The translations under genes were made by a program, and so were the position numbers. The notes under the pieces were generated by a model. That model was not told the DNA's origin. It was given only the letters and a program-made list of their open reading frames with translations, and did no database searches. From Candidatus Harrisonbacteria bacterium (GTDB lineage: Bacteria; Patescibacteriota; Minisyncoccia; UBA6257; 02-FULL-45-10c), in contig JACROC010000006.1 of the NCBI GenBank assembly GCA_016214655.1, positions 21,377 through 85,376 on the forward strand: a stretch of DNA of 64,000 nt, read 5' to 3'. Below are positions 11,532 to 31,292 of the stretch, in pieces. Each line of letters starts with the position of its first letter. The stretch's first letter is position 1.

Positions 11532-11550
11532 CCAAGTGTTTAAGCGGTTT

Positions 11551-12768
11551 ATGCGGGATAAACAGGTGCAGAATTTGGTTGGGCAAGAATTGAGGCGGCA
11601 GCAGCTTTCGCTTGATTTAATTGCTTCGGAAAATTACGTTTCTCCCCAGATACTGAAGATTTTAGGATCGCCGCTGGTTAATAAATATTCCGAGGGTTAT
11701 CCGGGAAAGCGATATTATCCCGGCAATGAATTTTATGACCTGATTGAAAAATTGGCCCAAGACCGGGCCAGGAAGGTTTTTAATCTGTCTCACCGGAGCT
11801 GGGATGTTAACGTTCAGCCGTATTCCGGTTCGCCTGCAAATCTGGCGGTTTATTTCGCTTTAATGGATCCGGGTGATGTTTTGATGGGTATGAATTTGAT
11901 GTCTGGCGGCCATTTGACCCATGGCCATAAAGTGAATTTTTCCGGCAAAATTTATAAATCGGTCCAATACGGCGTTAATGAACAAACCGGGTTGGTAGAT
12001 TATTCCAAGGCGGCAAATCTAGCCAGAAAATATAAACCAAAGGTTATTGTTTCCGGGTTAACGGCTTATCCCAGAAAAATTAATTTCAAAAAATTCGGCC
12101 AGATTGCCAAATCGGTCGGCGCATATCATTTGGCGGACATTTCACACATTGCCGGCTTGGTAGCGGCTGGTTTGCACCAGTCCCCATTTCATTATAGTGA
12201 CGTAGTAATGACCACAACTCATAAGACTTTGCGCGGTCCAAGGGGCGCGATAATTTTTGCCAGGAAAGAATTATCTGAAAAAATAGATAGGGCGGTTTTT
12301 CCCGGGATTCAGGGCGGCCCGCACAATAACGTAGTTGCCGCCAAAGCAGTGATGTTTTTTGAGGCGCTAAAGCCGGAATTTAAGCGGTATCAGCGGCAAG
12401 TTGTAAAAAACGCCGCTGCTCTGGCTGGTAATTTAAGGGATTTAGGATTTAAATTAGTTACCGGCGGAACGGATAATCATTTGATTCTCGTTGATCTCAG
12501 GGATTCTTTGATTGACGGGTTAACCGCGGAGAAAATACTGGAAAAAAATAATATTACTGCGAATCGCAATGCTATACCGGGTGACTATTCTCCGTTTAAG
12601 CCGTCGGGCATCAGAATCGGCACGCCAGCGGTCACCACTCGTAGGATGGGCGAGTCGGAAATGTCTGAAATTGCCGGATTCATTTATCTGGCTTTAATTA
12701 AAAAACGAGATGTTAAAAAGGAAGTTGAAAAATTATGCAGAAGGTTTCCCTTGGAATATGGATATTAA
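11551..12768 (+). CDS. glyA: serine hydroxymethyltransferase
   Basis: LDLIASENYVSPQILKILGSPLVNKYSEGYPGKRYYPG... and the PLP-lysine region VVMTTTHKTLRGPRGAIIF. ATG at 11551 (the listed start at 11452 is upstream of the previous gene's stop). Confidence 0.9.
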   Translation: MRDKQVQNLVGQELRRQQLSLDLIASENYVSPQILKILGSPLVNKYSEGYPGKRYYPGNEFYDLIEKLAQDRARKVFNLSHRSWDVNVQPYSGSPANLAVYFALMDPGDVLMGMNLMSGGHLTHGHKVNFSGKIYKSVQYGVNEQTGLVDYSKAANLARKYKPKVIVSGLTAYPRKINFKKFGQIAKSVGAYHLADISHIAGLVAAGLHQSPFHYSDVVMTTTHKTLRGPRGAIIFARKELSEKIDRAVFPGIQGGPHNNVVAAKAVMFFEALKPEFKRYQRQVVKNAAALAGNLRDLGFKLVTGGTDNHLILVDLRDSLIDGLTAEKILEKNNITANRNAIPGDYSPFKPSGIRIGTPAVTTRRMGESEMSEIAGFIYLALIKKRDVKKEVEKLCRRFPLEYGY

Positions 12769-13654
12769 AAATTTTATTGTAAATTATCATTATGTTGAGG
12801 ATCCCCGGCCGGATTTTTCCGGCATTTGGCCGTGCTCTATTAGCGAATTTGAGCGTCAAATAAAATTCTTATCCGGTAATTTTTCTATAGTGTCGGCTGT
12901 TGACGTTTATAGGGCATCCCAGGAGAATAGCGGGGGTAATTATTGCGCCATTACTTTTGATGACGGCTTGAGGGATCAATATCAGAATGCGGTCCCGATT
13001 TTGAAAAAATATAACGCGACCGCGACTTTTTTTATTATTACTGATACCCTTAATGGATTTTTGCCACCCGCCCACCAGATCCACTTTTTGCTTTCCAAAG
13101 TTCCGGCAGAAAAATTAATTGATTTATTCAACGATTTTCAGAACCAATATCAGATACCCAAAGATCGGAGAGTTAATCCTAAAAAAAGACTTTTTGAGGA
13201 TATTTTGATTGCCAATTTTAAAGAAACTATGATGTCGGCGCCCCAAGACCTGACAGAACCGTTTTTGGGACATTGTTTTGAAAATCTTTCTTTGGATCCG
13301 GAAAAGTTCGGGCGGGGAACCTTTATGGATGAGCCGGAAATTCTCAGTTTAAGAAACACCGGTTTTTCCATCGGCAGCCACGCCCATAAACATTATTTGG
13401 AAGAAAGCATTAATCAAAAATATTTTCCTAGCGAGGTACGGGATTCTAAAAAAATTCTCGGGAGACTCCTCGGAGAAGATCCGACGATTTTCTCTTATCC
13501 CCATGGCCGGCACAATAATGAGGTTATCGCCCTTTTAAAAGAAGAAGGATTTAAACACGCTTTTATCACGGATCCGCGTCCCCCGAGGGCTGGAGACAAT
13601 CCGTATCTTATACCGAGACTGGATACCAACGATATTAAAAAATTAATTTATTAA
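12758..13654 (+). CDS. polysaccharide deacetylase (NodB-homology, CE4)
   Basis: NodB motif 1 AITFDDGLRDQ and His motif IGSHAHKH. ATG at 12758 overlaps the glyA stop. Confidence 0.7.
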   Translation: MDIKNFIVNYHYVEDPRPDFSGIWPCSISEFERQIKFLSGNFSIVSAVDVYRASQENSGGNYCAITFDDGLRDQYQNAVPILKKYNATATFFIITDTLNGFLPPAHQIHFLLSKVPAEKLIDLFNDFQNQYQIPKDRRVNPKKRLFEDILIANFKETMMSAPQDLTEPFLGHCFENLSLDPEKFGRGTFMDEPEILSLRNTGFSIGSHAHKHYLEESINQKYFPSEVRDSKKILGRLLGEDPTIFSYPHGRHNNEVIALLKEEGFKHAFITDPRPPRAGDNPYLIPRLDTNDIKKLIY

Positions 13655-13656
13655 TT

Positions 13657-14454
13657 ATGGTTTCAGCAGTTTTAATAACCAGCAATGCTTTACGGCATCA
13701 TTTTGTCGCCAATTATCTTTCTGACCATTTGAATTTGGCGGGCGTGGTATCTGAAGCCAAGCTTGCTTCTCCTCAGGGCGCCACCGTGGCGGAGGATGAA
13801 ATCATAAAAACGCATTTGCAGGAATTGAAAGAAACAGAGAAAGAATTTTTCGGTGGATATGAAAATTTTAAAATTCCAAAAAGCAGCGTATTAGAAATCG
13901 CGCGCGGCACTTCTAATGACCCCGCGGTTTTTGAGTGGGTTAAAAATAAAAATCCGGAATACCTGATTTTATTCGGATCCTCAATAATCAAAGACCCCCT
14001 TTTGAGTTATTTTAAGGATAAGGTGATTAATATGCATTTGGGTTTGTCCCCGTATTATCGCGGCTCTGGAACTAATTTTTGGCCCCTGGTATTTCGCGAA
14101 CCGGAGTGTGTCGGCGCAACTATTCATTTGGCGACGCTTGAGGTTGATGCCGGCGCAATCTTGGGTCAAGTGAGGCCGGACTTTGTTCCTGGTGATAATT
14201 GCCACACTTTGGGTTTTAAAACCGTTATTGCCGGAACGCAGTTACTGGTAAAGATCATTGGGGCGTATAATAAAGGAAATCTGGCGGGGCATAGACAAAA
14301 TCTGTCTATTGGCAAAGTATTTAAGAAAAAGAATTTTAATGCCGAAGCAGTGTTAGCTATGAGGAAAAATTTTGAAACCGGAATGATTGAAGAATATTTA
14401 AATGATCAGGCAGATCGCAATCAACAATATCCAATAATTTCCCCATTTTTATAA
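13657..14454 (+). CDS. formyltransferase-domain protein, sugar N-formyltransferase-like
   Basis: Formyl_trans_N catalytic signature NMHLGLSPYYRG (compare N-x-H-x-S-LLP-x-x-RG) and GATIHLATLEVDAGAILGQ (catalytic Asp). 265 aa with no tRNA-binding C-terminal domain, so not Fmt. Confidence 0.6.
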   Translation: MVSAVLITSNALRHHFVANYLSDHLNLAGVVSEAKLASPQGATVAEDEIIKTHLQELKETEKEFFGGYENFKIPKSSVLEIARGTSNDPAVFEWVKNKNPEYLILFGSSIIKDPLLSYFKDKVINMHLGLSPYYRGSGTNFWPLVFREPECVGATIHLATLEVDAGAILGQVRPDFVPGDNCHTLGFKTVIAGTQLLVKIIGAYNKGNLAGHRQNLSIGKVFKKKNFNAEAVLAMRKNFETGMIEEYLNDQADRNQQYPIISPFL

Positions 14455-14487: not shown

Positions 14488-15855
14488 ATGCACCCACAAC
14501 CAGCAAAAACTATTTTTCTTACTAGCTTCCACGTGCTTATTTCCAGAAATATCCTCTCGACACCAATTTTAAAGATGTTGACTGATAAAGGCGTACAAAT
14601 AGTTATCTTGGTACCAGATTACAAGAAAGAATTTTTTGAAAAGAACTTTTCCGGACCAAACATTATCATTGAGGGGATAGAGGCATATGGGTTCTCAAAG
14701 AGTTTTATTGGCTTATTCTTTAAACGCTTGTCGCGTGTTATTCTTGATACGGATACAGTAAGGATTAGAATGAAGTATAAGCTCGTTGTAGAGAGAAAAT
14801 TTATATATTATTTTTTATTTTTTGTGCCGGCGAAGATTTTAGGGAAATCCAAAACTGTAATTAGCCTGATAAGATTTTTAGATTATAAACTGCGCTCGAA
14901 GCCGGGATATTTCCTGGATTTATTTAATAGATATCATCCTGATCTTATAGTCGCCACTGATGTGAATAATGAGAATGATGTTGCATTACTTCAGGATGCA
15001 AAGGCCAAAAAAATGCCGACAGCTGCTATTGTGCGGTCGTGGGATAATTTAACAAATTTTCTAATGAGAAGCACACCCGATTGGTTGGTTGTTGCAAATG
15101 AGATTATGAAATCACAAGTAATTACATATCATGGCCTCAGGGCGGAGAATGTTTTGGTAACCGGGATGCCGCATTATGACCGCTATATCCGCGGTGCTAC
15201 GATGAGTCGTAAAGAATTTTTTGATTCCATTGACGCAGATCAAAGGAAGAAATTAATTTTATATGTGCCAGTTGCGGATTATCGGGTGAAAGAAAATGAT
15301 ATTGATTCGTATATTATACGCTTACTTTCAAGTCTAGATGTAAATACTCTTGTCCGTTTTCCCCCCGCAGCTACGGTGGCAGTGGATAAAACTCAATTTC
15401 CGGAGAATGTGATCTTTGACGAGCCGGGAGTTCGATTCGGCGGCAAGGGAGATAGCGAGATGACGAAAGAGGATGACGATGGGTTGATTAATATTCTTTC
15501 TTATTCTGACGTGGTTGTATCCGGTCCGGGCACGATGAATATTGATGCGGCGATTTTTGATAAACCAATTGTGCTTGTGAATTTATATCCCACCCAGCGT
15601 ATTCAATTGGAGGGTATCAAAGAATACGGATATACACATATCCAAAATATATTAAAAACCGGCGGAATTCGTATGGCGACGAATAAAGAAGAACTTTTTG
15701 ATTTTATCAATCTGTATTTTAAAAATCCGAGTTTGGATGCTGATGGCAGGCGGAGAATTACCAGAGAACAGTGTTACAAATTAGATGGCAGAAGTAGCGA
15801 ACGCGTTACTAACCATATTTTAAGATTTTTGTCTGAAAATGAAATCATTGCTTAA
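14488..15855 (+). CDS. TagF/TagB-like glycerophosphotransferase-family protein (paralog 3)
   Basis: YHPDLIVATDVNNENDVALLQDAKAKKMPTAAIVRSWDNLTNF, KLILYVPVADYR, SGPGTMNIDAAIFDKPIVLVNLY and the C-terminal REQCYKLDGRSSERV shared with paralogs. Confidence 0.5.
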   Translation: MHPQPAKTIFLTSFHVLISRNILSTPILKMLTDKGVQIVILVPDYKKEFFEKNFSGPNIIIEGIEAYGFSKSFIGLFFKRLSRVILDTDTVRIRMKYKLVVERKFIYYFLFFVPAKILGKSKTVISLIRFLDYKLRSKPGYFLDLFNRYHPDLIVATDVNNENDVALLQDAKAKKMPTAAIVRSWDNLTNFLMRSTPDWLVVANEIMKSQVITYHGLRAENVLVTGMPHYDRYIRGATMSRKEFFDSIDADQRKKLILYVPVADYRVKENDIDSYIIRLLSSLDVNTLVRFPPAATVAVDKTQFPENVIFDEPGVRFGGKGDSEMTKEDDDGLINILSYSDVVVSGPGTMNIDAAIFDKPIVLVNLYPTQRIQLEGIKEYGYTHIQNILKTGGIRMATNKEELFDFINLYFKNPSLDADGRRRITREQCYKLDGRSSERVTNHILRFLSENEIIA

Positions 15856-16773: not shown

Positions 16774-17715
16774 ATGCAAAGAGTAAAGATCGCGGGTTTA
16801 GAGGTTGGAGATGGCGCCCCCGTTTTTATGATTGCCGAGATTGGAATTAACCATAATGGCAGTTTAGATGTTGTTAAAAAATTAATTGATGCCGCTGCTG
16901 AAGCGGGGTGTCAAGCGGTAAAGTTCCAAAAGCGCACAATTCCAGTTATTTATTCTGAAGCCGAGCTCCAGAAGCCTCGTGAAGTGCCCGCTGATGTGAT
17001 CGTGCGAGCTCTGAAGAGGGGGGTTCTTTCTAAAGAGGCAGTTGTTCGCCTTGTCGACTCGGATCTTCGGCAGACAACAAATGGCGATTTGAAGCTGGCG
17101 TTGGAGTTGACGGCATCAGAGTATGCCGAAATTGATGTATATTGTAAAACAAAAAACATGCTTTGGTTCGCTTCTCCTTGGGATGAGGATAGCGTTGATT
17201 TTTTGGATCAATTTAATCCCTGTTGTTATAAAGTGGCATCTGCGTCATTAACTGATGACGGATTATTGGAGTATATTCGTTCTAGGGGGTGTCCCGTGAT
17301 TCTTTCAACTGGTATGAGTACTCTTGAGCAGATTGATCATGCGATTGATGTCCTTGGAGAGGATGATCTGGTATTACTGCATTGCGTTTCTACTTATCCA
17401 GCAGAGTACAAAGAACTTAATCTCCGCGTAATTCCGGTTTTAAAAGCAAGATATGATATTCCGGTAGGATATAGCGGTCATGAGCGAGGTATCCATTCGT
17501 CAGCTCATGCAGTTGCGTTAGGCGCTTGTGCAGTCGAAAGACATGTGACCCTTGATCGTATAATGTGGGGTAGTGATCAGGCTGCTAGTATTGAGCCGAA
17601 AGGATTGGAGTCATTAGTAAAAGAGATTCGTCATTTAGAGGAGGCATTGGGAGATGGAGAGAAGCGATTACTTGATTCAGAAGTTCCTATTATGAAGAAA
17701 CTGCGACGGAAATAA
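16774..17715 (+). CDS. neuB: NeuB-family nonulosonic acid (sialic-acid-type) synthase, no SAF domain
   Basis: APVFMIAEIGINHNGSLDVVKKLIDAAAEAGCQAVKFQKRT... is the NeuB/PseI/SpsE TIM-barrel signature. 313 aa, ends before any SAF domain. Carries a ~45-aa insert after KFQKRT. RBS gaggagg upstream. Confidence 0.75.
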   Translation: MQRVKIAGLEVGDGAPVFMIAEIGINHNGSLDVVKKLIDAAAEAGCQAVKFQKRTIPVIYSEAELQKPREVPADVIVRALKRGVLSKEAVVRLVDSDLRQTTNGDLKLALELTASEYAEIDVYCKTKNMLWFASPWDEDSVDFLDQFNPCCYKVASASLTDDGLLEYIRSRGCPVILSTGMSTLEQIDHAIDVLGEDDLVLLHCVSTYPAEYKELNLRVIPVLKARYDIPVGYSGHERGIHSSAHAVALGACAVERHVTLDRIMWGSDQAASIEPKGLESLVKEIRHLEEALGDGEKRLLDSEVPIMKKLRRK

Positions 17716-17726
17716 AGATGTACACC

Positions 17727-17753
17727 GCCGGATTATCTGATCCGGCTTTTTTA
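17727..17753 (+). terminator. rho-independent terminator after the NeuB-like gene
   Basis: gccggat-tatctg-atccggc hairpin followed by ttttttattt. Confidence 0.55.
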
Positions 17754-17818: not shown

Positions 17819-18556
17819 ATGCAAAATCTCTTTTCTTTAAATGGGAAAGTGATAATTCTTACTGGCGGCAGCGGGTTTTTGGGATCATATTATATGCGAG
17901 CTTTGCGTGATGCGGGCGCTATCGTTATCGATTGGGATTTGAAATCTGGCATTGATATTACCGATGATCAATCAGTCGCGGCAGCAATTGAGAATGTTTT
18001 GGAGAAATATGGAAGAGTTGATGGATTGGTCAATAATGCGGCGCTGGATGCAAAACCACATTCTGATCCAGCGAGTAATTGGAAGCCGTATGAAGAATTT
18101 CCAATGGATCTTTGGGAGAGAGAATTGGCGGTAAATCTGACGGGTGCAATGAGGGTGACTAAGGTGGTTGTCCCGTACATGATGCGTCAGCGTTTCGGCT
18201 CTATTATTTTTGTAGCTTCTGATTTGGCTTTAATTGCGCCAAATAATTCTATCTACGATGCGGGTCGCTTTAAGGATATTGCTTATATCACTTCAAAGGC
18301 TGGTCTTCTTGGCCTGATGCGAGCATGGGCTTCGCGACTCGGGTCATACAATGTCCGAGTAAATGCGTTCGTCCCCGGCGGAGTTTTTAACGGCCATTCG
18401 GAAGAATTTGTAAAAAAGAATGGGGCGCTTAACATGTTGGGGCGTATGGCTGAGCCAAACGAGTACAGTGGCGCAATTATCTTTTTACTTTCCGATGCCT
18501 CAACATTTATGACTGGTTCATGTATGGTGATGGATGGAGGGAGGACTGCATGGTAA
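17819..18556 (+). CDS. short-chain dehydrogenase/reductase (SDR)
   Basis: TGGSGFLGSYY (TGxxxGxG) and YITSKAGLLGL (YxxxK). Confidence 0.75.
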   Translation: MQNLFSLNGKVIILTGGSGFLGSYYMRALRDAGAIVIDWDLKSGIDITDDQSVAAAIENVLEKYGRVDGLVNNAALDAKPHSDPASNWKPYEEFPMDLWERELAVNLTGAMRVTKVVVPYMMRQRFGSIIFVASDLALIAPNNSIYDAGRFKDIAYITSKAGLLGLMRAWASRLGSYNVRVNAFVPGGVFNGHSEEFVKKNGALNMLGRMAEPNEYSGAIIFLLSDASTFMTGSCMVMDGGRTAW

Positions 18557-18561
18557 ATAAA

Positions 18562-19551
18562 ATGAAGTTCCTTTTGTGCGGAATAGGGTCAATGGGGCAG
18601 AGGCATTTTCGGAATTTGAATGGATTGAGGCAGGAAATTGCACTTTTTCGGTCAAAACAAACAACCACTCCTTTTATTGAAAAGTTTTTTGAGGAGCAAA
18701 GAAAGAAAGGATTATTAATCCCTCTTTTTTATGACCTAGAGCTAGCATTGACAAGTTTTCGGCCGGATGCAGTTGTGGTTGCAAATCCTAATTCTCTGCA
18801 TATGCCCATTTCGTTGGCTGGCGCAAGAGCTGGTTGCCATCTTTTTATTGAAAAGCCAGTTTCCCATACGATGGATCAGATGGACGAATTGACAGAATTA
18901 CTCAAGAAGAAGAATTTAATTGCAATGGTCGGCTATAATCTTCGGTTTCATCCGCTTTTACAATTGATGAAAAGGATGTACGAATCCGGAGAAATCGGGC
19001 GCGCTGTATCTGTCCATGTTGAAGTTGGAGAAAATATTGAGGATTGGCATCCGTGGGAAGATTATAGAGACGCATACGCATGCTGGAAAAGCGGCGGTGG
19101 CGGAGTAACGTTATGTTTTAGCCACGACATAGATTATCTTTATTGGTTTTTTGGAATGCCAGAACGCGTGCAGGCTATTGGGGGTAAAAAGGCTCCGCTT
19201 GGCGGAGATGCCGAGGATACTATAAAGGCACTTATGGAATTTCGCGGCGGGCTAATTGCCTCGCTCCACATGGATTATTGGCAGAGACCAAAAAAGCGGA
19301 CATTTGAAATTATAGGAACACTTGGAAGGATGATGTGGGATTGCGGCGCAGGGACATTGGTGCTGGAAAAAAGAGATCTAATCAAAAAAACTTTTGACGT
19401 CCCAAAGAATTTCGATAGGAATGATATGTTTATTTCTGAGATGAAAAATTTTATTTTATCCGCAGAAAATAAAGAAAATCTACTTATTCCATTTGAAGAA
19501 GGGGTTGATGTTCTTAGGATTTGTATTGACATTAAGAAAAAAATTTATTAA
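18562..19551 (+). CDS. Gfo/Idh/MocA-family NAD(P)-dependent oxidoreductase
   Basis: MKFLLCGIGSMGQRHFRNL Rossmann N-terminus and the family-typical EKP motif (LFIEKPVSHT). ATG at 18562 just after the SDR stop. Confidence 0.7.
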   Translation: MKFLLCGIGSMGQRHFRNLNGLRQEIALFRSKQTTTPFIEKFFEEQRKKGLLIPLFYDLELALTSFRPDAVVVANPNSLHMPISLAGARAGCHLFIEKPVSHTMDQMDELTELLKKKNLIAMVGYNLRFHPLLQLMKRMYESGEIGRAVSVHVEVGENIEDWHPWEDYRDAYACWKSGGGGVTLCFSHDIDYLYWFFGMPERVQAIGGKKAPLGGDAEDTIKALMEFRGGLIASLHMDYWQRPKKRTFEIIGTLGRMMWDCGAGTLVLEKRDLIKKTFDVPKNFDRNDMFISEMKNFILSAENKENLLIPFEEGVDVLRICIDIKKKIY

Positions 19552-19560
19552 ATATATATT

Positions 19561-19590
19561 TCCGTGTTACGTAGACACGGATTTTTTTTT
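19561..19590 (+). terminator. rho-independent terminator
   Basis: tccgtgt-tacgtag-acacgga perfect 7-bp stem followed by T9. Confidence 0.6.
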
Positions 19591-19607
19591 GAATTATCAT
19601 TAAAAAA

Positions 19608-20624
19608 ATGAATTATTACGAAATACAAAATCAATCCAGGAAATTGCTTTCTTGGTTTTTAGATATAAGATCGAAAATCCTTGATTTAGATGGAGAGCAC
19701 CGTGTTTATGAAATTGCCGAAATTATAGCTTGTAATTATAGAAATTTAAATATTAATTTTCCTAAAAATGAAGTCATTGTAAGCGCTCCTCAAATTACAA
19801 ATAATTATTTTAATAATGATTCGGAATATAGGAAGCCTGTTAAGGATTTATTTAATCTAGTAAACAGGGAGCTCTCTCCATTTGTCAGTCAATTTTATTT
19901 ACACGGTAGCTTAGCTACCGAAGATTATAAAAAGGGATGGAGCGATTTAGATACATTTATGGTTATTAATGGGGAGGTTGTATTAGACGCGAAAAAGCTA
20001 ATTAAACTTCGAGAAATATGTTTTAATGCCTGGCCGATATTTTTGGAAATTACCCCATTACAGCATCACGGATTTATAATCATTACTGAGCTTGATACAA
20101 AATGTTATTCTAATTCTTTTTTACCAACGGAAGTATTTAAGTTGTCACTAGCTATGAAAAATAACCAGCCAACGCTTAAATTGTTAATTCGGGACGATGA
20201 TGGGTTGTCTAAAAATTTATTATTAAATAGATTAGAGCTTGCTCGTGAATCGGCGAATGAAGGAATTTTTAAATATCATCCACACAATGGGAAATATCTT
20301 TTATCTGAATTTCGTAATGCAAACGATTCAATGCATCAACTGTTTTCATTTTTAGGAAATAATATGAATGCTCCAATTTATTTTTTAGATTCTATTGGGA
20401 AAGGCTGTCATAAAAAAGAATCTTTTTTAAGAGCGCGATCATATTTTTCGGATGAGGCCTGGAGCGTTATTGACAAAGCAAGTATTATCAGGGATTTATG
20501 GCCAGATAAGGAAGGTCAAAGATACAGAGGTAATGCGATTCCGAAGTGGGTTATGGAAATTTTAGGGAAAAATTATATTAAGGAAGCCGTTACTTTGTGG
20601 GAAGAAGCGGTTAGTAATGTTTAA
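19608..20624 (+). CDS. uncharacterized protein with polymerase-beta-type nucleotidyltransferase-fold motif (possibly LicD/fukutin-like phosphotransferase)
   Basis: hG[ST]-x10-[DE]h[DE]h pattern: LHGSLATEDYKKGWSDLDTFMVI. No other recognisable domain. 338 aa. Confidence 0.3.
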   Translation: MNYYEIQNQSRKLLSWFLDIRSKILDLDGEHRVYEIAEIIACNYRNLNINFPKNEVIVSAPQITNNYFNNDSEYRKPVKDLFNLVNRELSPFVSQFYLHGSLATEDYKKGWSDLDTFMVINGEVVLDAKKLIKLREICFNAWPIFLEITPLQHHGFIIITELDTKCYSNSFLPTEVFKLSLAMKNNQPTLKLLIRDDDGLSKNLLLNRLELARESANEGIFKYHPHNGKYLLSEFRNANDSMHQLFSFLGNNMNAPIYFLDSIGKGCHKKESFLRARSYFSDEAWSVIDKASIIRDLWPDKEGQRYRGNAIPKWVMEILGKNYIKEAVTLWEEAVSNV

Positions 20625-20636
20625 AAATGAAATATT

Positions 20637-21695
20637 ATGAATAAAAAATTTGTTAATCCACCGCCTCGCAATATTAGTTTGGCGAAATATGATGCTGCCC
20701 ACAAAGAGCTTATCGAAGTCTTTTCGCAGTTTACGGATGTTGCGGCTTTGTATGATTATGGCACCGTCCATAATCCCGGCATTAGCGACCTCGATATTTT
20801 TCTGATTTTAAAGGGTGATTTGCATTCTTCGAAGGCAGAAGACTATCTTATTAGTGAAAAGAAATTTCCCCATACATATTCTCTTCCCCGAGGCACATTA
20901 ATGGTTATGAATGTTGGTGATTTTCAAGGGGTTCACTGGTTTGACGATCAAATTAAACTAAGCCATTTTTTTGGAGATAAAATTATATTGCAGGATATAG
21001 ATCTAGAAATGCAACGGCAGAGATTTTTTGCAAGTATTATTGATTGGCTGCCAGAGCGTTTAGGTGCCTTAGTCCGCTTACTACAGAAATCGGAAATCGA
21101 CATAGTATTTTCGCTACGCGTATTGAGGTGTTATTGTTATACGTTGGAAAAATTATACAAACTTACCAAGGGTTCTCAATATCAGGAATTTGTTAATCGA
21201 GTTTTGGATTTAAGAAACCATTGGAATGACGGAAGAGAAAAAGAATTAGTTGAATTAATACGTGGAGGAATCGTATTAGGATGTAAAGCGCTTTTAGATG
21301 TTTCGGATACGATTCTAAAAAATGAAGAAGGAGCTGTTGGTGAATTATCTTTATATCCCGATCTGAGATTTCATTTTATTGATAATGCGCAACTATTATC
21401 TGCTCAATGGATTTTGTCCAATTTGCATCCATCGAGTATTGTTATCCCGGTTCCGAGCACATATGCCCCGCATTTTTCTTTTTATAGCCAGCAGCCGGGA
21501 TTTCTAGCGGAACAAATGCGTCGGCAAATGAATATGTCGTTGATGCTTCAACCGAAGAGTGAATTATATAGAAAATTTTTAGCTAAGAAAATCGGATTGG
21601 CAACTCGTGCCGGAGAATTTTTGCTTCGCAATGGATTTAAGGACGGGCTTTTTCGTTTTGGGTTCTATTTTAAAAATTATTTGAATAATTTTTAA
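20637..21695 (+). CDS. uncharacterized nucleotidyltransferase-fold protein, distant paralog of the preceding gene
   Basis: YDYGTVHNPGISDLDIFLIL shows the same G[ST]...SDLD-hydrophobic-strand pattern. 352 aa. Confidence 0.3.
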   Translation: MNKKFVNPPPRNISLAKYDAAHKELIEVFSQFTDVAALYDYGTVHNPGISDLDIFLILKGDLHSSKAEDYLISEKKFPHTYSLPRGTLMVMNVGDFQGVHWFDDQIKLSHFFGDKIILQDIDLEMQRQRFFASIIDWLPERLGALVRLLQKSEIDIVFSLRVLRCYCYTLEKLYKLTKGSQYQEFVNRVLDLRNHWNDGREKELVELIRGGIVLGCKALLDVSDTILKNEEGAVGELSLYPDLRFHFIDNAQLLSAQWILSNLHPSSIVIPVPSTYAPHFSFYSQQPGFLAEQMRRQMNMSLMLQPKSELYRKFLAKKIGLATRAGEFLLRNGFKDGLFRFGFYFKNYLNNF

Positions 21696-22407
21696 AATTC
21701 TGTTCGGCGATCTTGAGATCTTTATACGTATCGATATCAACAAATTTTTCCTTTGGCATAATAAACCCACATACTTTGCTTCCCCACACCCTCCCCCCTT
21801 TTATATATTTGGCTTTTGTGGCATATATTAATCCAACTTGTAAATAATATCGCGGAAGCATTTGTCTGGGTACATCAGTTCCTAGTTTTCTGTAGTTTGT
21901 GGTTGGTAAGAGCGCTTTCATGCGACCACTTTTACCATGAGGCAGTGTCCACATCTTGAATGGATTGTAGGGACTAGGATCAATTATTGTTCTTATAGAT
22001 TCACATTTATGTCGATGCATGAATGTAAGAACATTATCAATGTCTTTTCCTGTTCTAAATGGTGATGTTGGTTGAAGTATGACGATAATATCGGGATCCC
22101 ATCCTCGATTTTTTTGAAGCCACTGTAGCGCATGGGCCAAAAAGTCAATATCTTTTGATTTATCACCAGCTAATCTTTTGGGGCGGAGGAACGGGACGTC
22201 GGCTTTATATTTTTTTGCTACCCTGGCAATTGCGGGATCATCGGTTGACACCATGAATGTATCTAGTAGTTTAGATTGTTGTGCGGCGCGGATAGTATAA
22301 TAAATTAGAGGTTTTCCGTGTAGGGGAATAATATTTTTATGAGGTATTCCCTTTGATCCGCCGCGTGCAGGAATGATTCCGACTATTTTTATCTGACTTT
22401 TTTTCAT
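21670..22407 (-). CDS. neuA: acylneuraminate (CMP-nonulosonic acid) cytidylyltransferase
   Basis: KIVGIIPARGGSKGIPHKNIIPLHGKPLIYYTIRAA...STDDPAIARVAKKYKADV, the CTP_transf_3 signature. Confidence 0.8.
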   Translation of the reverse strand: MKKSQIKIVGIIPARGGSKGIPHKNIIPLHGKPLIYYTIRAAQQSKLLDTFMVSTDDPAIARVAKKYKADVPFLRPKRLAGDKSKDIDFLAHALQWLQKNRGWDPDIIVILQPTSPFRTGKDIDNVLTFMHRHKCESIRTIIDPSPYNPFKMWTLPHGKSGRMKALLPTTNYRKLGTDVPRQMLPRYYLQVGLIYATKAKYIKGGRVWGSKVCGFIMPKEKFVDIDTYKDLKIAEQNFKNYSNNF

Positions 22408-22492: not shown

Positions 22493-23809
22493 ATGACTAT
22501 TTTTATCACTAGTTTTCAATCGCTTATTTCACGGAATATTTTAGGAACTCCACTACTTTCATTTTTGAAAAGTAACAATGTGCAAGTGGTGCTTTTGGTT
22601 CCTCAAAAAAAGAAAGATTTTTTTGAAGAAGAATTCAGAGAATTTGAAGTTGTTGTAGAGAGTATTGATACAAAGTTGCAATGGCAAGATAAATTTTTAC
22701 GCTATCTATTTCTTACAGCGCTTAAGACGCGTACTTTAGACATCAAGCGGGAAACAGAAATGAAGGGAAGCGGGAAATGGCTTAAGGTTATTATTAGAAA
22801 TAGTAGCATAGGACGGAAGATGTTGCGATGGCTAAATGCGATTTTGACCCCACGCAATACATTTAAAGATTCATTTCAAAAGTATAATCCTGATTTAGTA
22901 TTTTCAACTGATGCACAAAATGAAATAGATGTCAGGTTGCTCTTGGATGCAAAAAGGAATGGCGTGAGCACGATCGGCATGGTTCGATCATGGGATAATC
23001 TTACCGCTAAGGGCGTGATTCGGGTTATCCCGGATTTGTTAGCGGTTCATAATGAAATTCTTAAAGAAGAAGCTATAACTCTTCATGGAATTCCGGAAGA
23101 AAGGATAAAGATTATCGGCATTCCGCACTACGATCGATATTTTCAGGGCTCGCATTCCAGCCGGGAGGAATTTATGAAACGAATCGGTGCTAATCCCCAA
23201 AAGAAATTAATATTATTTGCGCCTACCGGCGATCGGTATATCGGTGAAAATACAGTTGATAAAGAAGTGTTGGAGATTTTGGATAAAAATATCGGAGAAG
23301 AATACCAGATTTTGGTGCGTTTTCCGCCGGCTGATACGGTATCAGGCCTGGATGGCCGGGAAAACAACAGCCGTTTTATTTTTGACCGGCCGAGCAGGCG
23401 ATTTAAAGTATTAAAAAATACCGAACTTACCAAAGAAGAAGACGCGCATCTGGTAGATTCGATTTATTGGAGCGATTTGATAATCGCAGGCCCATCTACG
23501 CTCTGTGTTGATGCGGCAGTTTTCAACAAGCCGATAGTGCTGGTTGGATTTGATGGCTATGAAAAGCGCCCATATTATCAAGGTATCCGCCGATATTATG
23601 ATTACAATCATTTTGATCCGATACTTAAAAGCGGAGGAGTAAAATTAGCAGAGAATGCAGAGGCGTTAGCTAAATCTGTAAAGGCTTATTTGCAAAATCC
23701 ATTTCTGGATGAACAGGGGAGGCGAGCGATTGTCCGGCAAGAATGTTGGAATACGGATGGGAAAGCAACGGAGCGGCTGGCAAATTCGTTAATTTCCGCA
23801 CTTAAATAG
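22493..23809 (+). CDS. TagF/TagB-like glycerophosphotransferase-family protein (paralog 4)
   Basis: YNPDLVFSTDAQNEIDVRLLLDAKRNGVSTIGMVRSWDNLTAKG, KLILFAPTGDRY, AGPSTLCVDAAVFNKPIVLVGFDGY, and C-terminal RQECWNTDGKATERL. Confidence 0.5.
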   Translation: MTIFITSFQSLISRNILGTPLLSFLKSNNVQVVLLVPQKKKDFFEEEFREFEVVVESIDTKLQWQDKFLRYLFLTALKTRTLDIKRETEMKGSGKWLKVIIRNSSIGRKMLRWLNAILTPRNTFKDSFQKYNPDLVFSTDAQNEIDVRLLLDAKRNGVSTIGMVRSWDNLTAKGVIRVIPDLLAVHNEILKEEAITLHGIPEERIKIIGIPHYDRYFQGSHSSREEFMKRIGANPQKKLILFAPTGDRYIGENTVDKEVLEILDKNIGEEYQILVRFPPADTVSGLDGRENNSRFIFDRPSRRFKVLKNTELTKEEDAHLVDSIYWSDLIIAGPSTLCVDAAVFNKPIVLVGFDGYEKRPYYQGIRRYYDYNHFDPILKSGGVKLAENAEALAKSVKAYLQNPFLDEQGRRAIVRQECWNTDGKATERLANSLISALK

Positions 23810-24564: not shown

Positions 24565-26214
24565 ATGGCTTTTGGAATTTTTACAAAATTTTCGGTGTTG
24601 CCGGTACTGCTCCAAAAAATATTTTTGCTGCAATTTCCTAATATATATACGCAGCACAACTTTATTATTTTAATTGAATCGCTGGTCTATATTTATGCTT
24701 CTTTTTTGGCGGGATCGTTTTTGTTGAGGAAAATGGGGCTTGACCTGAATTCCCGATTGAAACAGGCTGCCTATTCGGTAATGAGCGGATATGCCATTTT
24801 TGGTCTCTGGGGATTGGTTTTGGCCGCATCCGGATTATTTGAGCCGATGTATTTAAGGATGTTTTTGGTTTTGGCTGTTCTTGGTTCGGCGGGAACTATC
24901 GCAAAGCAGGGGATGGAAATCTGGAAGGCGGATTATTCAAAAGAGAGAATAACCCGTTTTCTGAAAACGATAGCAGACAGTTCATTAATTTTGAAATTAC
25001 TTATTGCGCTTTGGATAGCTGCCAATTTTGCCATTGTACTTGTGCCGATAACTGGCCATGATACGCTGCATTATCATCTTCCGATTATGGCGAATTTAAT
25101 TAGCGAGGGAAGGATGAATTTTGATACTGCTTTGCCGAGCAGATTTTTGCCGATTTTCGGAGAGATTATCTATGCGGTGCCAATGGCGATTTTCAGCAAT
25201 CTTACGGAACCATTTGTGTTCCAGGTGATGCAGTACAGCTTTTTGATTTTATTTGCGATTTTGATATACGAATTTTTGAAACCGCGTATTTCCAATCAAT
25301 TCTTGGGTCTTGCGGCAGTATTGCTTTTATTCTCAATTATGGATTTTCAGCGTGAGATTATGCACGGCGGATACATAGATGTATTGGCATTTCTATTTGG
25401 CAGCGCTAGCACTCTGCTTTTGATTGAAAACTGCTGCGAGGTGAATATGCGGCCTAGAGAAGTGATGCTTTCCGCGCTGATGCTCGGGGTTGCGCTCGGC
25501 GTTAAATATCTTGCATTGGTTTTTGCGGCAATCAACTTTTTATTTTTATTGGTGATGTTTTGGCGGCAGAAGGTAAATTATGGCGTTATAGCAAGGTGGC
25601 TGGCAGGATATGGGCTTATCATATTTGCCGTGTCGGGGTTTTGGTATTTAAAAAATGCGATTTTCTTTGGAAGCCCTATTTACCCGATGTTTTCTAACAA
25701 ATTGTTTACCTCGCAGGTAAATGTGTTTCTTTTAGACAGGACGGTACTTAATTTTTTCTGGTTTCCGTTTTATCGGTACGGACAGTGGTTTGTCCAGGAT
25801 GTGGAGACCTCCAGCCGTCTTGTGGTGCTGGGATATTTTATTGCCGCATATCTTTTATTCGCGATTTTCTTTTTCAGTAAAAAACTGCGTTGCGCAGAAA
25901 CGCTTTTATTCGTTTTTGTGCAATTATATCTTTTGTTTTTGTTTTTTATGTCCCATCAATATCGGTTCTTACTTCCTTCTAATATCATGCTGGTTCCGCT
26001 TTTGATCTTATTTATTGACCAGGTGTATCAATTTTTAAAAACAAAACTTTTTGAAAATCCATATTCTATTTTTGTCAGAGCATCTTTTTGGGCGATGAGT
26101 ATAGGTTTTGCACTGTTATTCCTCGCCAACACTCATTATTTATACGCTAAATTTTCGTATGCGACTGGCGTGTATGACCAGGATGAATACAGAAGCGAGA
26201 TTGGCGGGTTCTAG
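24565..26214 (+). CDS. polytopic membrane protein, putative GT-C-type glycosyltransferase (GT39/GT83-like) partnered with the upstream GT2
   Basis: 549 aa and more than 12 hydrophobic segments. Acidic/His loop (GHDTLHYH) after TM helices 3-4. Gene order GT2 then large membrane protein is typical of polyprenyl-P-sugar donor/GT-C pairs. No diagnostic motif confirmed. Confidence 0.3.
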   Translation: MAFGIFTKFSVLPVLLQKIFLLQFPNIYTQHNFIILIESLVYIYASFLAGSFLLRKMGLDLNSRLKQAAYSVMSGYAIFGLWGLVLAASGLFEPMYLRMFLVLAVLGSAGTIAKQGMEIWKADYSKERITRFLKTIADSSLILKLLIALWIAANFAIVLVPITGHDTLHYHLPIMANLISEGRMNFDTALPSRFLPIFGEIIYAVPMAIFSNLTEPFVFQVMQYSFLILFAILIYEFLKPRISNQFLGLAAVLLLFSIMDFQREIMHGGYIDVLAFLFGSASTLLLIENCCEVNMRPREVMLSALMLGVALGVKYLALVFAAINFLFLLVMFWRQKVNYGVIARWLAGYGLIIFAVSGFWYLKNAIFFGSPIYPMFSNKLFTSQVNVFLLDRTVLNFFWFPFYRYGQWFVQDVETSSRLVVLGYFIAAYLLFAIFFFSKKLRCAETLLFVFVQLYLLFLFFMSHQYRFLLPSNIMLVPLLILFIDQVYQFLKTKLFENPYSIFVRASFWAMSIGFALLFLANTHYLYAKFSYATGVYDQDEYRSEIGGF

Positions 26215-26229
26215 TGTTATATATTGCAT

Positions 26230-27567
26230 ATGATTAAAACGCTTTTTTTAACTATATTTGAAGGGGCAGAGGCGCGGAATCTTTTACGGACTTCAGTGGC
26301 GCCGACGCTATTAAGCGATCCGGAAGTGCGAATTGTGCTTTTTACGAAAAGTCCGGATCGCGTGGAGTATTATAAAAAAGAATTCAGCGATCCGAGATTG
26401 ATCTATGAGGTAGTGGCGCCGATAAAAGTTGAAGGATTAGACAAGTTCTTTGCCTTCTTAAAATTTCTTCTTTTAAAAACCGAAACTACGGATCTCCGGC
26501 GCTCCTCGCGCTTTAGCTTATTTGCCAGCTGGCTCTTGGCCCGGCCCGCAGTAAGGAGGATGGTCCGATTTCTGGATTATCATTTGGTGAGAAATTCCGC
26601 GTATAGCCGCTATTTTGACGCTTATAAACCGGACGCGGTTTTGCTTGCCCATTTATTTGATGAACCAGAGATTCATCTTTTGCGCGAGGCAAAAAAGCGC
26701 AGAGTAAAGACGATCGGATTTGTAAATTCGTGGGATAAGGTTACGGCCCGCTGTATCCTGCGCTTGCTGCCCGATAAGGCAGTCGTCTTTAACGATGTCG
26801 TGAAAAAAGAAATGATGGAGCATAATGAAATGGCGGAAAAAGATATTTTTGTTAGCGGCCTGCCCCAATACGATAGTTATTTTATGGATAAAAATTACAC
26901 TTCGCGGGAAGTTTTTTTTAATAAATTAAATCTTGATCCGAGGAAAAAATTAATCGTCTACGCGCCGCTGGGCCGCACCTGTGGCGAATCTGACTGGGAT
27001 ATAATCGATCTTTTATATCGTCTCCGTGACAGCGGAAGATTCGGCGATGGCGCGGATTTACTTGTCCGGTTCCAGCCCAATGATTTCTTGGATGAGGCAG
27101 AATTGAAAAAGCGGCCACATCTTAAGTATGATTATCCGGGCACCCGTTTTTCTTCGACGCGCGGCATAGACTGGGATATGAATGCCGAGCACTTGAAGCA
27201 TTTAAGGGACACGCTTCATCATATGTCGCTTTTGGTATGTTACGCGTCTAGCGTCAGCATTGATGCGGCGATTTTTGATAAACCGATTATTAACATTAAT
27301 TTTGAAACCCGGAAACCGGATTCTTTTGAAGAGTCTTCAACTAAATATTATTCGTTCACTCATTACAAAAAAGCGCTGGCTACGGGAGGAATCCGCCTGG
27401 CGAGCAGCGAGGAAGAATTGGTTGCAGCAATTAAGGAATACCTTGCTGATTCTTCGCCTGATCGCGAAGGCAGGAAGAGATTGGTGCGCGAACAATGCCA
27501 ATTTGTTGACGGTAAAGCCGGCGAGAGGATTGGTAAATTTATACTAGAGCCATTTAAGACCCAATGA
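26230..27567 (+). CDS. TagF/TagB-like glycerophosphotransferase-family protein (paralog 5)
   Basis: YKPDAVLLAHLFDEPEIHLLREAKKRRVKTIGFVNSWDKVTAR, KLIVYAPLGRT, ASSVSIDAAIFDKPIININFE, C-terminal REQCQFVDGKAGERI. ATG at 26230. Confidence 0.5.
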   Translation: MIKTLFLTIFEGAEARNLLRTSVAPTLLSDPEVRIVLFTKSPDRVEYYKKEFSDPRLIYEVVAPIKVEGLDKFFAFLKFLLLKTETTDLRRSSRFSLFASWLLARPAVRRMVRFLDYHLVRNSAYSRYFDAYKPDAVLLAHLFDEPEIHLLREAKKRRVKTIGFVNSWDKVTARCILRLLPDKAVVFNDVVKKEMMEHNEMAEKDIFVSGLPQYDSYFMDKNYTSREVFFNKLNLDPRKKLIVYAPLGRTCGESDWDIIDLLYRLRDSGRFGDGADLLVRFQPNDFLDEAELKKRPHLKYDYPGTRFSSTRGIDWDMNAEHLKHLRDTLHHMSLLVCYASSVSIDAAIFDKPIININFETRKPDSFEESSTKYYSFTHYKKALATGGIRLASSEEELVAAIKEYLADSSPDREGRKRLVREQCQFVDGKAGERIGKFILEPFKTQ

Positions 27568-29384: not shown

Positions 29385-30566
29385 ATGTCCCTAAAAATCA
29401 TGAAAAAAACAGCTAAACGCAAAATTTGTTTCCCGATAATGAATAAGATCCATTATGCCCGGCAGAAGCATCTTTTGACGCTTTTAAAAAATCATCCGAA
29501 GGCGGATCTTCAAATCGTTGCCGGAGGATCGGTGTTGCTGGAAAAATACGGTGAACGGTTTTTATCCGCAATCCAAGATGCCGGATTTACCGTGCAGGAT
29601 ACGCTCTATAATGTCATTGATGGCGGAAGCCATATTTCGATGGCAAAAACTGCTGGTTTAACTGCGCTGGAGTTTTCCAATTCTCTATATAAATTGAATC
29701 CGGACGTGGTGCTGATCCGCGGCGATCGTTTTGAGCAATTAGCAATTGCAATGACTGCCGCATATTTGAATAAAACTATTGCGCATATTGAAGGCGGGGA
29801 TGTGAGCGGGACGATTGACGAAAGCGTGCGCCATGCGATCACGAAATTGGCGCATATTCATTTTGTGACTAATGAAGACGCGCGCAAGCGGGTGATTCAG
29901 ATGGGAGAGAATCCCAAAATGGTTTTTAATGTCGGATCTCCGGATGCGGAGTTCGCGGCTTCGGTTGATAAAAAATTGGATGGCAGCGCGGTAAATCGAA
30001 TTGGCATCGGTGAAGAAATTGATTTAAGTAAACCGTTTTTGATGGTGATGCAGCATCCAGTCACAACGGAAAAGAATAACCGCGAGCATATGGAATTGAC
30101 GCTGAAAGCGGTGAATGAATTGAATATGCCGGCGATCTGGTTTTGGCCGAACAGCGATGCCGGGACAAATGAAATTTCCAAGGCAATCCGCGATTACCGT
30201 GAATCAGGAAAACTGACCAATGCGCAGGTAAGATTCGTGACTGATTTATTGCCAGAAGATTTTATTGCTTTATTGCGCCGCGCAAGTGTTCTGATCGGCA
30301 ATTCTTCGGCGGGCATTAAAGAATGTTCATATTTAGGTGTGCCGGTGGTGAACATCGGTACCCGGCAGAATAATCGTTTGCGCGGCCAGAACGTGCTGGA
30401 TGTAGGTTATAGCGTGAATGCGATTAAAAAGGCTATTCAGTCGCAGCTTGAGCACGGTAAATATCAGAGCTCGGATCTTTACTATAAACCGGACGGAAGT
30501 AAAAAAATGGCGGAAATTTTAACCACCGTTCCGCTTTATTCACAAAAGAAGTTCTACAATGTCTAA
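29385..30566 (+). CDS. neuC: UDP-N-acetylglucosamine 2-epimerase, NeuC-like (hydrolysing type)
   Basis: Epimerase_2 fold with HIEGGDVSGTIDESVRHAITKLAHIHFVTNE (compare the HxEGG motif of hydrolysing NeuC/SiaA). Confidence 0.7.
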   Translation: MSLKIMKKTAKRKICFPIMNKIHYARQKHLLTLLKNHPKADLQIVAGGSVLLEKYGERFLSAIQDAGFTVQDTLYNVIDGGSHISMAKTAGLTALEFSNSLYKLNPDVVLIRGDRFEQLAIAMTAAYLNKTIAHIEGGDVSGTIDESVRHAITKLAHIHFVTNEDARKRVIQMGENPKMVFNVGSPDAEFAASVDKKLDGSAVNRIGIGEEIDLSKPFLMVMQHPVTTEKNNREHMELTLKAVNELNMPAIWFWPNSDAGTNEISKAIRDYRESGKLTNAQVRFVTDLLPEDFIALLRRASVLIGNSSAGIKECSYLGVPVVNIGTRQNNRLRGQNVLDVGYSVNAIKKAIQSQLEHGKYQSSDLYYKPDGSKKMAEILTTVPLYSQKKFYNV

Positions 30567-31278
30567 GGTTCTTGGGGTTATTACTGCGCGAGGCGGTTCC
30601 AAGGGAGTTCCCGGGAAAAATATTAAATTATTATCAGGAAAGCCGCTTATTGCATATACTATCGCAGCCGCCAAAAATTCTGGCATTTTGGACAGGCTGA
30701 TTTTATCTACCGACGATTCCAGTATTGCGGCGGTTGCAAAAAAATGCGGCTGTGAAGTGCCGTTTATGCGGCCGAAAGAAATTGCTCAAGATGAAACCTC
30801 GCATTTGCCAGTAATACAGCATGCGGTCCAGTGGCTTAAAGACAATGAAAATTACTGGCCGGATTATGTGATGATTTTGCAGCCAACTTCGCCTTTGCGG
30901 CAGGCATTCCATATCAAAGAAGCGGCGGATCTTATTGTGAAAAGCGGGGCCGATTCGGTATTAAGCGTAGCGGAGATTCCGGAGAATTTCAGTCCTTATA
31001 AGGCGATGGTCGTGGAGAATGGCGAATTAAGATTGTTCAATGGGAATCCGGTACGGAAACGAATGGCGCGCCGGCAGGATCTCGGAAAAACTTATTGGAG
31101 TATCGGATCAATTTATCTTTTTAGAACCGAATTGCTTTTTGATAAAAATGAGCCGAATTTCTACGGCGATAAAGTTATGCCGTACGTTATTGAAGATAAA
31201 TACCTGGTTGATATTAATGTTCCGGAAGATTGGGAAAAAGCCGAAAGAGCCCTTAATAATCTAAACCCTAAACCCTAA
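30559..31278 (+). CDS. neuA: acylneuraminate (CMP-nonulosonic acid) cytidylyltransferase
   Basis: VLGVITARGGSKGVPGKNIKLLSGKPLIAYTIAAA...STDDSSIAAVAKKCGCEV. Confidence 0.8.
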   Translation: MSKVLGVITARGGSKGVPGKNIKLLSGKPLIAYTIAAAKNSGILDRLILSTDDSSIAAVAKKCGCEVPFMRPKEIAQDETSHLPVIQHAVQWLKDNENYWPDYVMILQPTSPLRQAFHIKEAADLIVKSGADSVLSVAEIPENFSPYKAMVVENGELRLFNGNPVRKRMARRQDLGKTYWSIGSIYLFRTELLFDKNEPNFYGDKVMPYVIEDKYLVDINVPEDWEKAERALNNLNPKP

Positions 31279-31292
31279 ACCCTATTTTATCC

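Follow-up and report, generated by a model that had tools for sequence, protein, structure and literature searches.

What does a pair of adjacent nucleotidyltransferase-like genes contribute to a locus devoted to glycan synthesis? The question is raised by a stretch of 64,000 nucleotides from Candidatus Harrisonbacteria bacterium (assembly GCA_016214655.1, contig JACROC010000006.1, positions 21,377 to 85,376 of the forward strand), here called the window and numbered from its first letter, in which two open reading frames, ORF1 and ORF2, are separated by a gap of 12 bp. An earlier note, made from the sequence alone, had described two adjacent proteins of about 340 residues inside a glycan island, with a nucleotidyltransferase (NTase) motif of the polymerase-beta (pol-beta) type as their only common feature and no other recognizable domain. 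This description was borne out: the proteins have 338 and 352 residues, the island covers the window from position 1 to about 39.4 kb around the pair, and the sequence comparisons below found a shared motif and nothing beyond NTase domains. We conclude that ORF1 and ORF2 are probably the paired subunits of a single enzyme that serves ulosonic-acid glycan pathways and resembles the ANT-type antibiotic nucleotidyltransferases in architecture.

To place the two proteins, we aligned ORF1 with 32 relatives and ORF2 with 107. A word-indexed search had given 6 relatives of ORF2; the full profile search raised this to 980 cluster representatives (E≤1e-3), 107 of them passing E≤1e-30. ORF1 exceeds the Pfam gathering threshold for NTP_transf_2 (PF01909; 27.3 bits against 21), a family also matched by 26 of its 32 relatives (E≤0.1). 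ORF2 stays below the threshold for Polbeta (PF18765; 13.7 bits against 26.9) and does not reach that for NTP_transf_2, to which 4 of its 107 relatives match weakly. Pfam and NCBIfam scans found no further domain in either protein, NCBIfam being empty for both, and neither has a hydrophobic segment fitting a membrane span (maximum KD19 1.0 and 1.5). ORF1 carries the NCBI label "nucleotidyltransferase domain-containing protein", so the remark that the two are unannotatable by eye does not hold for it; ORF2 is listed there as "hypothetical protein HZB99_03255". The motif reads YLH-G100-S101-LATEDYKKGW-S112-D113-L-D115-TFMVI in ORF1 and YDY-G42-T43-VHNPGI-S50-D51-L-D53-IFLIL in ORF2. Between G[ST] and SDLD lie 10 residues in ORF1, with H99 just before G100, and 6 in ORF2; the spacing of 9 to 11 given earlier for both holds for the first protein only. 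BLASTP aligns ORF1 with ORF2 over 49 residues (E=0.005), and hhalign gives their family profiles a probability of 15% over 34 columns. As far as these comparisons reach, the likeness of the two sequences is confined to the NTase motif.

Two elements of the pol-beta NTase superfamily signature are present: hG[GS], which belongs to the turn between strand 1 and the helix, as H99-G100-S101 in ORF1 and Y41-G42-T43 in ORF2, and the metal motif [DE]h[DE]h of strand 2, as D113-L-D115 and D51-L-D53, each at the start of a predicted strand (115-120 and 53-58). Within the ORF1 family G100 is kept in 97% of sequences and S101, S112, D113 and D115 in all; Y167, P173, P256, K269, S272 and R295 are also invariant, D106, Y107, G110, W111, R135, F273 and W298 are nearly so, and position 163 is D or E in 94%. 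The ORF2 family keeps G42, S50, D51 and D53 without exception, whereas the residue after G42 (T43 here) varies; Y18, G48, D136-W137-x-x-E140-R141, S165 and R193 are conserved in at least 93%, and D103 in 86%. Because the motif is conserved across 32 and 107 relatives, it is no chance match, and the alignments indicate that a metal and nucleotide site is kept in both subunits. The region of strand 3 is the usual place in NTases for a third carboxylate or a catalytic base. By alignment and predicted secondary structure, the canonical third carboxylate on this strand is not obvious in either protein. In ORF1, Q152-H153-H154 precede the strand that AlphaFold places at 157-160, and D163 comes just after it; in ORF2, strand 87-92 carries no conserved residue, with D103 as the conserved acidic position after it and D136 and E140 in the next helix. 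The invariant histidine pair of ORF1 would thus occupy the neighborhood of the third carboxylate, and it may have a catalytic role.

The AlphaFold models, made from the same alignments, are of high confidence, with a mean predicted local distance difference test (pLDDT) score of 94.5 for ORF1 and 97.1 for ORF2. Their best matches among solved structures are two-domain antibiotic O-adenylyltransferases, namely ANT(3'')(9)/AadA, AAD(9), LinB and KNTase, with LinB and KNTase among the neighbors of ORF2; MNT and HEPN proteins rank after the ANT enzymes. Structural superposition reproduced the architecture of ANT(3'')(9)/AadA, an NTase domain followed by a C-terminal helical domain. These models imply that ORF1 and ORF2 are remote relatives, at 10-12% identity, of two-domain small-molecule O-nucleotidyltransferases. 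Against Protein Data Bank (PDB) sequences the ORF1 profile matched 6sxj over a 58-residue core only (E=0.008) and the ORF2 profile returned noise only; in NCBIfam neither protein matches a resistance-gene family. Comparison by hhalign of both family profiles with an aadA1 sequence gave probabilities of 1.8% and 5%, with near-zero confidence beyond DxD, and was not used. The NTase fold proposed in the earlier note is thereby supported, as is its suggestion of a new subfamily: these are new families, for which no family model exists apart from the general NTP_transf_2 model that ORF1 matches.

The side-by-side arrangement in the window suggested asking how constant the association is. Related loci were collected with the ORF1 alignment, by exact protein look-up of relatives and from one genome per species and JGI metagenomes, and searched for members of the two families with their profiles. 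The first 27 loci to yield a full ORF1 homolog all had an ORF2 homolog immediately beside it, even where ORF1 was just 26-30% identical to the window protein. In a wider set of 67 non-redundant loci, from bacteria and DPANN archaea, that carry both genes at full length, the two are adjacent in 61: 32 with ORF1 first, 23 in reverse order and 6 on opposite strands. The other 6 have one to three genes between them, the intervening genes being a short-chain dehydrogenase (SDR), CTP_transf_3 or NeuB of the same cluster. The hosts include bacteria of the candidate phyla radiation (CPR), to which the organism of the window belongs, Peregrinibacteria, Limnochordia, Elusimicrobia and one Prochlorococcus marinus assembly, together with metagenome-assembled genomes of Woesearchaeota, Nanoarchaeota and Methanosarcinales among the archaea, and the pair is found on many marine metagenome contigs.

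The two genes are also found naturally fused. Eight representatives of 642-653 residues (P0044, P0046-P0048 and P0191-P0194) join an N-terminal ORF1-type half (HGS...GFSDLD...HHG) to a C-terminal ORF2-type half (YGxVxxPGISDLD...DWLPER), in the same genomic context as the split genes. Pairwise identities of ORF1 and ORF2 correlate at r=0.885, whereas the values for each of them with the neighboring CTP_transf_3 are lower (0.63-0.68); the correlation is confounded by shared descent and is supportive only. Classically, obligate pairing with recurrent fusion marks two genes as encoding subunits of the same enzyme, and on this basis we interpret the two proteins in that way.

Departures from the pattern are few. 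An ORF2 homolog was not detected in only two loci, L070 and L072, each with 2.8-4.9 kb of contig downstream of ORF1; in these marine sequences (L072:3013-6860 and L070:148-4006) the ORF1 homolog is followed by unannotated proteins of about 480 and 382 residues, one of which may stand in for ORF2 or be a strongly diverged form of it. One ORF2-type protein (P0167, 531 residues) has an additional N-terminal region of about 215 residues.

The company that the pair keeps points to a pathway. We counted partners within 6 kb in a non-redundant set of 22 bacterial-type loci that extend 4 kb or more on both sides; the counts come from single-sequence seeds and are lower bounds. After ORF2, which is present in all 22, the most constant partner is CTP_transf_3 (20 loci, often immediately adjacent), followed by NeuB (18), SDR (13), DegT (9), Gfo/Idh/MocA oxidoreductases (7) and the HAD phosphatase Hydrolase_3 (6). 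TagF-like genes occur in 2 of the 22, and the co-occurrence with them that the earlier note had proposed to look for is therefore not general. The order NeuB, SDR, Gfo/Idh/MocA, ORF1, ORF2 recurs in groundwater contigs, and permuted orders with Hydrolase_3 and CTP_transf_3 are found elsewhere, including around fused forms. Methyltransferases, nucleoside diphosphate (NDP)-sugar dehydratases and epimerases, ABC exporters and PhyH dioxygenases are further common neighbors. No sialyltransferase family is among the 25 most frequent Pfam families of 123 unlabeled neighbors of the pair.

NeuB, a phosphatase and a cytidylyltransferase make up the standard route from a phosphorylated aldose to an ulosonic acid of the Kdn or sialic type, activated with cytidine monophosphate (CMP). 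The accompanying oxidoreductases also have a precedent. ElaA, ElaC and ElaB, which are Gfo/Idh/MocA, SDR and CTP_transf_3 proteins, respectively, epimerize CMP-Leg5,7Ac2 at C8, and structural and genetic work has shown that they make CMP-8-epi-legionaminic acid via a CMP-8-keto intermediate (PMC13656337); EpaA and EpaB are related to the Ela enzymes (PMC12053666). Of the elements that recur in these clusters, the NTase pair is the only one to which no step has been assigned.

A second, longer ORF1 subfamily (414-467 residues), mainly from DPANN archaea, has different surroundings: ORF2, a Wzx-type flippase, GT4, DegT, B12-radical-SAM enzymes and a private protein of 267 residues. The flippase adjoins the pair in 10 of 14 loci, and NeuB and CTP_transf_3 are usually missing. 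For this reason we regard the pair as a glycan-pathway enzyme in general, and as an ulosonic-acid-pathway enzyme in the clade of the window.

Several observations concern other genes at these loci. The private archaeal protein (262-267 residues, no Pfam match) always adjoins the ORF2 homolog (L020:12070-12873; L015-L019, L021, L024 and L026), and is absent from the window and from the bacterial loci. A protein of about 390 residues, Lept_O_ant_chp1 in precomputed Pfam annotation, directly follows the pair at L007:7399-8571 and in 7 other loci, a marine subset; it was considered as a universal third partner and rejected, being present in these 8 loci only. Fusions also occur among the partner genes, joining CTP_transf_3 to Hydrolase_3 (402-420 residues) or NeuB to an additional protein (740-749 residues); examples are L100:2318-3526, L038:10230-11492, L106:3086-5308, and L049 and L073 (NeuB of 749 residues).

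What might such an enzyme do? Overall, the best explanation is a heteromeric ANT-like O-nucleotidyltransferase dedicated to CMP-ulosonic-acid clusters, a proposal to which we give a little less than an even chance. ORF1 and ORF2 would be different subunits of one heteromeric NTase-fold enzyme, serving clusters that make and use CMP-activated ulosonic acids of Kdn-, sialic- or legionaminic-like type. The complex would be soluble, cytoplasmic and Mg2+-dependent, and would bind a nucleoside triphosphate at its G...SDxD site or sites. It could then move the nucleoside monophosphate to a hydroxyl group on the free ulosonic acid, its CMP ester or a lipid-linked glycan that carries it, either as a permanent decoration or as a transient activating or leaving group for a later step. 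LinB and KNTase work as dimers whose active sites are built from both chains, and by analogy the substrate pocket may lie at the subunit interface. The fold, the conserved motifs, the obligate pairing, the fusions and the pathway context are observed. The complex, the nucleotidyl transfer and the sugar acceptor are our proposals, and O-nucleotidylation of a sugar hydroxyl, taken by itself, is the more tentative part, with a probability appreciably below even. Two bolder versions, in which the pair would be a kind of enzyme not recognized before and which even together we consider distinctly unlikely, are that an NTase-fold transferase uses a CMP-sugar donor to attach the ulosonic acid to its acceptor, with loss of CMP, or that a new nucleotide-ulosonate conjugate is an obligatory intermediate (cryptic nucleotidylation). 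The former, if true, would mean an FKRP-like active site acting at the anomeric carbon, and would fill the apparent lack of a recognizable sialyltransferase in many clusters.

The main rival is group transfer of the kind catalyzed by LicD and FKRP, in which the pair, not itself of the LicD family, would consume the product of the neighboring cytidylyltransferase and pass a moiety to a glycan acceptor, with CMP leaving. The constancy and frequent adjacency of CTP_transf_3 fit this idea, which also has precedents: the NTase fold of FKRP supports group-transfer chemistry (PMC6965139), and the gene partnership of licC and licD parallels that of CTP_transf_3 and the pair (PMC2794190). The lack of a sialyltransferase among the frequent neighbor families and the flippase beside the archaeal pair, a typical spot for a glycan-decorating transferase, are further points in its favor. 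Against it, CMP-ulosonates carry a single phosphate, and there is no LicD or FKRP signal in sequence or structure. The LicD and fukutin Pfam models (PF04991 and PF06828) are absent from the matches listed at E≤0.1 for 139 family members (32 ORF1 and 107 ORF2) and matched neither window protein at E≤10, and neither LicD/FKRP proteins, including the catalytic domain of FKRP, nor CD-NTases nor ANT(2'')-Ia are among the structural neighbors of the two models. Membership of the LicD/fukutin family, as the earlier note had envisaged, is thus not supported, and transfer chemistry of this type, though the strongest competitor, seems to us improbable.

The remaining alternatives are unlikely because the biosynthetic context is so constant. 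ORF1 and ORF2 could be two independent NTases, or an active enzyme with a non-catalytic, paralogue-like partner, that perform separate steps and are merely co-inherited. Outside the motif no relationship between the two families can be detected, each has its own invariant DxD, and the 6 of 67 loci in which the genes lie apart and the 6 in which they are on opposite strands weigh against a single two-subunit enzyme. Against independent enzymes stand the recurrent fusion into one polypeptide, the adjacency in 61 of 67 loci from both bacteria and archaea, and a co-variation with each other that exceeds the one with the CMP-synthetase, and the structural relatives LinB and KNTase are dimers with composite active sites; we give this alternative little weight. 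It is very unlikely indeed that the proteins are ANT-type antibiotic-resistance enzymes, or an MNT/HEPN toxin-antitoxin pair, that lie in the island by chance. The ranking of structural matches, with ANT and then MNT and HEPN proteins, is what such an origin would give, but none of the NCBIfam resistance models fits them, they are just 10-12% identical to ANTs, and the ulosonic-acid setting is constant in environmental bacteria and archaea. As for MNT/HEPN, either module is roughly a third of the size of these proteins, and the C-terminal K269, S272, R295 and W298 of ORF1 do not include the R-x(4-6)-H RNase motif, there being no histidine 4-6 residues after R295. Least probable of all is a CD-NTase-like signaling enzyme of a defense system, which the earlier note had also considered. 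The ORF1 profile matches CdnD (E=5e-4) over a 63-residue core, which is a match at the level of the motif, and ORF1 has a weak PADLOC "Cyclase" match (11.7 bits, E=0.029); the latter is non-significant, ORF2 has none, and no CD-NTase is a structural neighbor. The earlier note had seen no effector, and indeed the neighbors of the pair are glycan enzymes.

The features of the locus are listed in the table. Genes in this part of the window run in the order TagF-like, methyltransferase, NeuB, SDR, Gfo/Idh/MocA, ORF1, ORF2, CTP_transf_3 (convergent), TagF-like. The 56-bp gap upstream of ORF1 contains a terminator-like hairpin overlapping a promoter-like site, and from these sequence features ORF1 and ORF2 may form a bicistronic unit of their own.

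Table. Features of the NTase pair and its surroundings (positions in the window)
Feature	Position	Strand	Remarks
NeuB-family ulosonic acid synthase without SAF domain	16774..17715	+	Recurrent partner of the pair
Short-chain dehydrogenase SDR (ElaC-like)	17819..18556	+	ElaC comparison, PMC13656337
Gfo/Idh/MocA oxidoreductase (ElaA-like)	18520..19551	+	ElaA comparison, PMC13656337
Terminator-like hairpin 19561-19581 (8-bp stem, T9) and promoter-like TAGACA-17-TATCAT 19572-19600	19561..19600	+	Consensus matches only
ORF1, putative NTase subunit A, 338 residues	19608..20624	+	N-terminal helical region, pol-beta NTase core, C-terminal HEPN-like helical domain (predicted)
ORF1 putative nucleotide/metal-binding signature G100-S101...S112-D113-x-D115	19905..19952	+	Conservation in 32 relatives
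ORF1 motif L151-Q152-H153-H154-G155	20058..20072	+	Invariant in 32 relatives
ORF2, putative NTase subunit B, 352 residues	20637..21695	+	NTase core, then large helical domain with small beta insertion (predicted)
ORF2 putative signature G42...S50-D51-x-D53	20760..20795	+	Invariant, 107 relatives
ORF2 motif D136-W137-L-P-E140-R141 (DWLPER)	21042..21059	+	Long helix after the core; 93-96% conserved, 107 relatives
CTP_transf_3 cytidylyltransferase (CMP-ulosonic acid synthetase type)	21670..22407	-	Convergent with ORF2; ends overlap by 26 bp

A second terminator-like hairpin with a T-run follows the NeuB gene (17727-17746), and terminator-like sites number 10 in the region, where shuffled sequences have 5.6±2.4. 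The listed start of the Gfo/Idh/MocA gene overlaps the SDR gene by 37 bp (18520-18556); because relatives have 330-335 residues, the gene probably begins a few codons later than listed, at MVNKM or MKFLL.

Elsewhere the island encodes glycosyltransferases of families GT4, GT9 and GT2, sugar dehydratases, aminotransferases, methyltransferases, five TagF-like proteins, two NeuB synthases, two CTP_transf_3 proteins, a NeuC-like epimerase, a Wzy-like protein, two flippases and a Bac_transf initiating transferase. A second, separate ulosonic-acid gene set lies at 29385-33346 and comprises a NeuC-like UDP-GlcNAc 2-epimerase (29385-30566), CTP_transf_3 (30559-31278), a 2-hydroxyacid dehydrogenase (31293-32228) and NeuB with an SAF domain (32225-33346), so the island probably makes two different CMP-ulosonic acids. 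The TagF-like paralogues, of about 440-460 residues (7422-8804, 10179-11531, 14488-15855, 22493-23809 and 26224-27567), align with the TagF Glyphos_transf profile over its C-terminal two thirds only (E 1e-9 to 1e-15), and, given their place in a CMP-sugar island, could be CMP-ulosonate-dependent transferases rather than glycerophosphotransferases. Between a GT2 gene and a TagF-like gene is a 549-residue open reading frame without a Pfam match (24565-26214). A serine hydroxymethyltransferase gene (11452-12768, TTG start as listed) is directly followed by polysaccharide deacetylase and formyltransferase genes (11452-14454 in all), an arrangement that suggests one-carbon units supplied locally for an N-formyl sugar. 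Just beyond the island are a PaaX_M/Cas2-like protein of 184 residues (41659-42213) and a 1405-residue protein with Lamin Tail Domain repeats (42829-47046). Over the whole window (1-64000) every 2-kb block has a positive GC skew and almost all long open reading frames lie on the forward strand, consistent with the leading strand of a single replichore.

Nonulosonic and related ulosonic acids occur as surface decorations in many bacteria and archaea, and the pathways that tailor them are known only in part. In the literature we found no description of an NTase pair in nonulosonic-acid clusters, and about 980 ORF2-type cluster representatives in public data belong to a unit that has neither a family model nor a name. 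Once its reaction is defined, a missing enzyme would be added to ulosonic-acid pathways, and the pair would exemplify the architecture of antibiotic-resistance NTases, as an obligate heteromer, in primary glycan biosynthesis.

How, finally, does the pair compare with known systems? The closest in architecture are ANT(3'')(9)/AadA and AAD(9) (PDB 7uy4, 5lpa and 6sxj), the best structural matches for both proteins. In these enzymes an N-terminal pol-beta core with G-S...D-x-D is followed by a helical, HEPN-like C-terminal domain, which folds over the bound substrates, and the nucleotide is accepted by a hydroxyl group on a sugar-like small molecule. The pair lies outside their sequence family, at 10-12% identity only, and in a biosynthetic rather than a resistance context. 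AadA is a single chain of about 260 residues, whereas here there are two, of 338 and 352, with extra N-terminal elements in ORF1 and inserted elements in ORF2. The invariant Q-H-H of ORF1 would stand where AadA presumably has its catalytic Glu87, an assumption for which the supporting alignment is unreliable. LinB and KNTase/ANT(4') (PDB 3jyy, 6nlt and 4ebj) are homodimers of one gene product, in contrast to the two sequence-unrelated subunits found here, encoded side by side or fused. With LicD, fukutin and FKRP (PF04991 and PF06828) the pair shares the NTase fold, a D-x-D metal site, a glycan locus and a cytidylyltransferase partner (PMC2794190, PMC6965139), but the partner here is of the CMP-ulosonate and not the CDP-alcohol type. 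The flanking Gfo/Idh/MocA, SDR and CTP_transf_3 families are those of the Ela module for 8-epi-legionaminic acid in Acinetobacter baumannii KL49, where they oxidize and then re-reduce a CMP-nonulosonic acid (PMC13656337), and of EpaA/EpaB (PMC12053666). As described, these modules have no NTase-fold pair, and it is this pair that the present locus adds to them.

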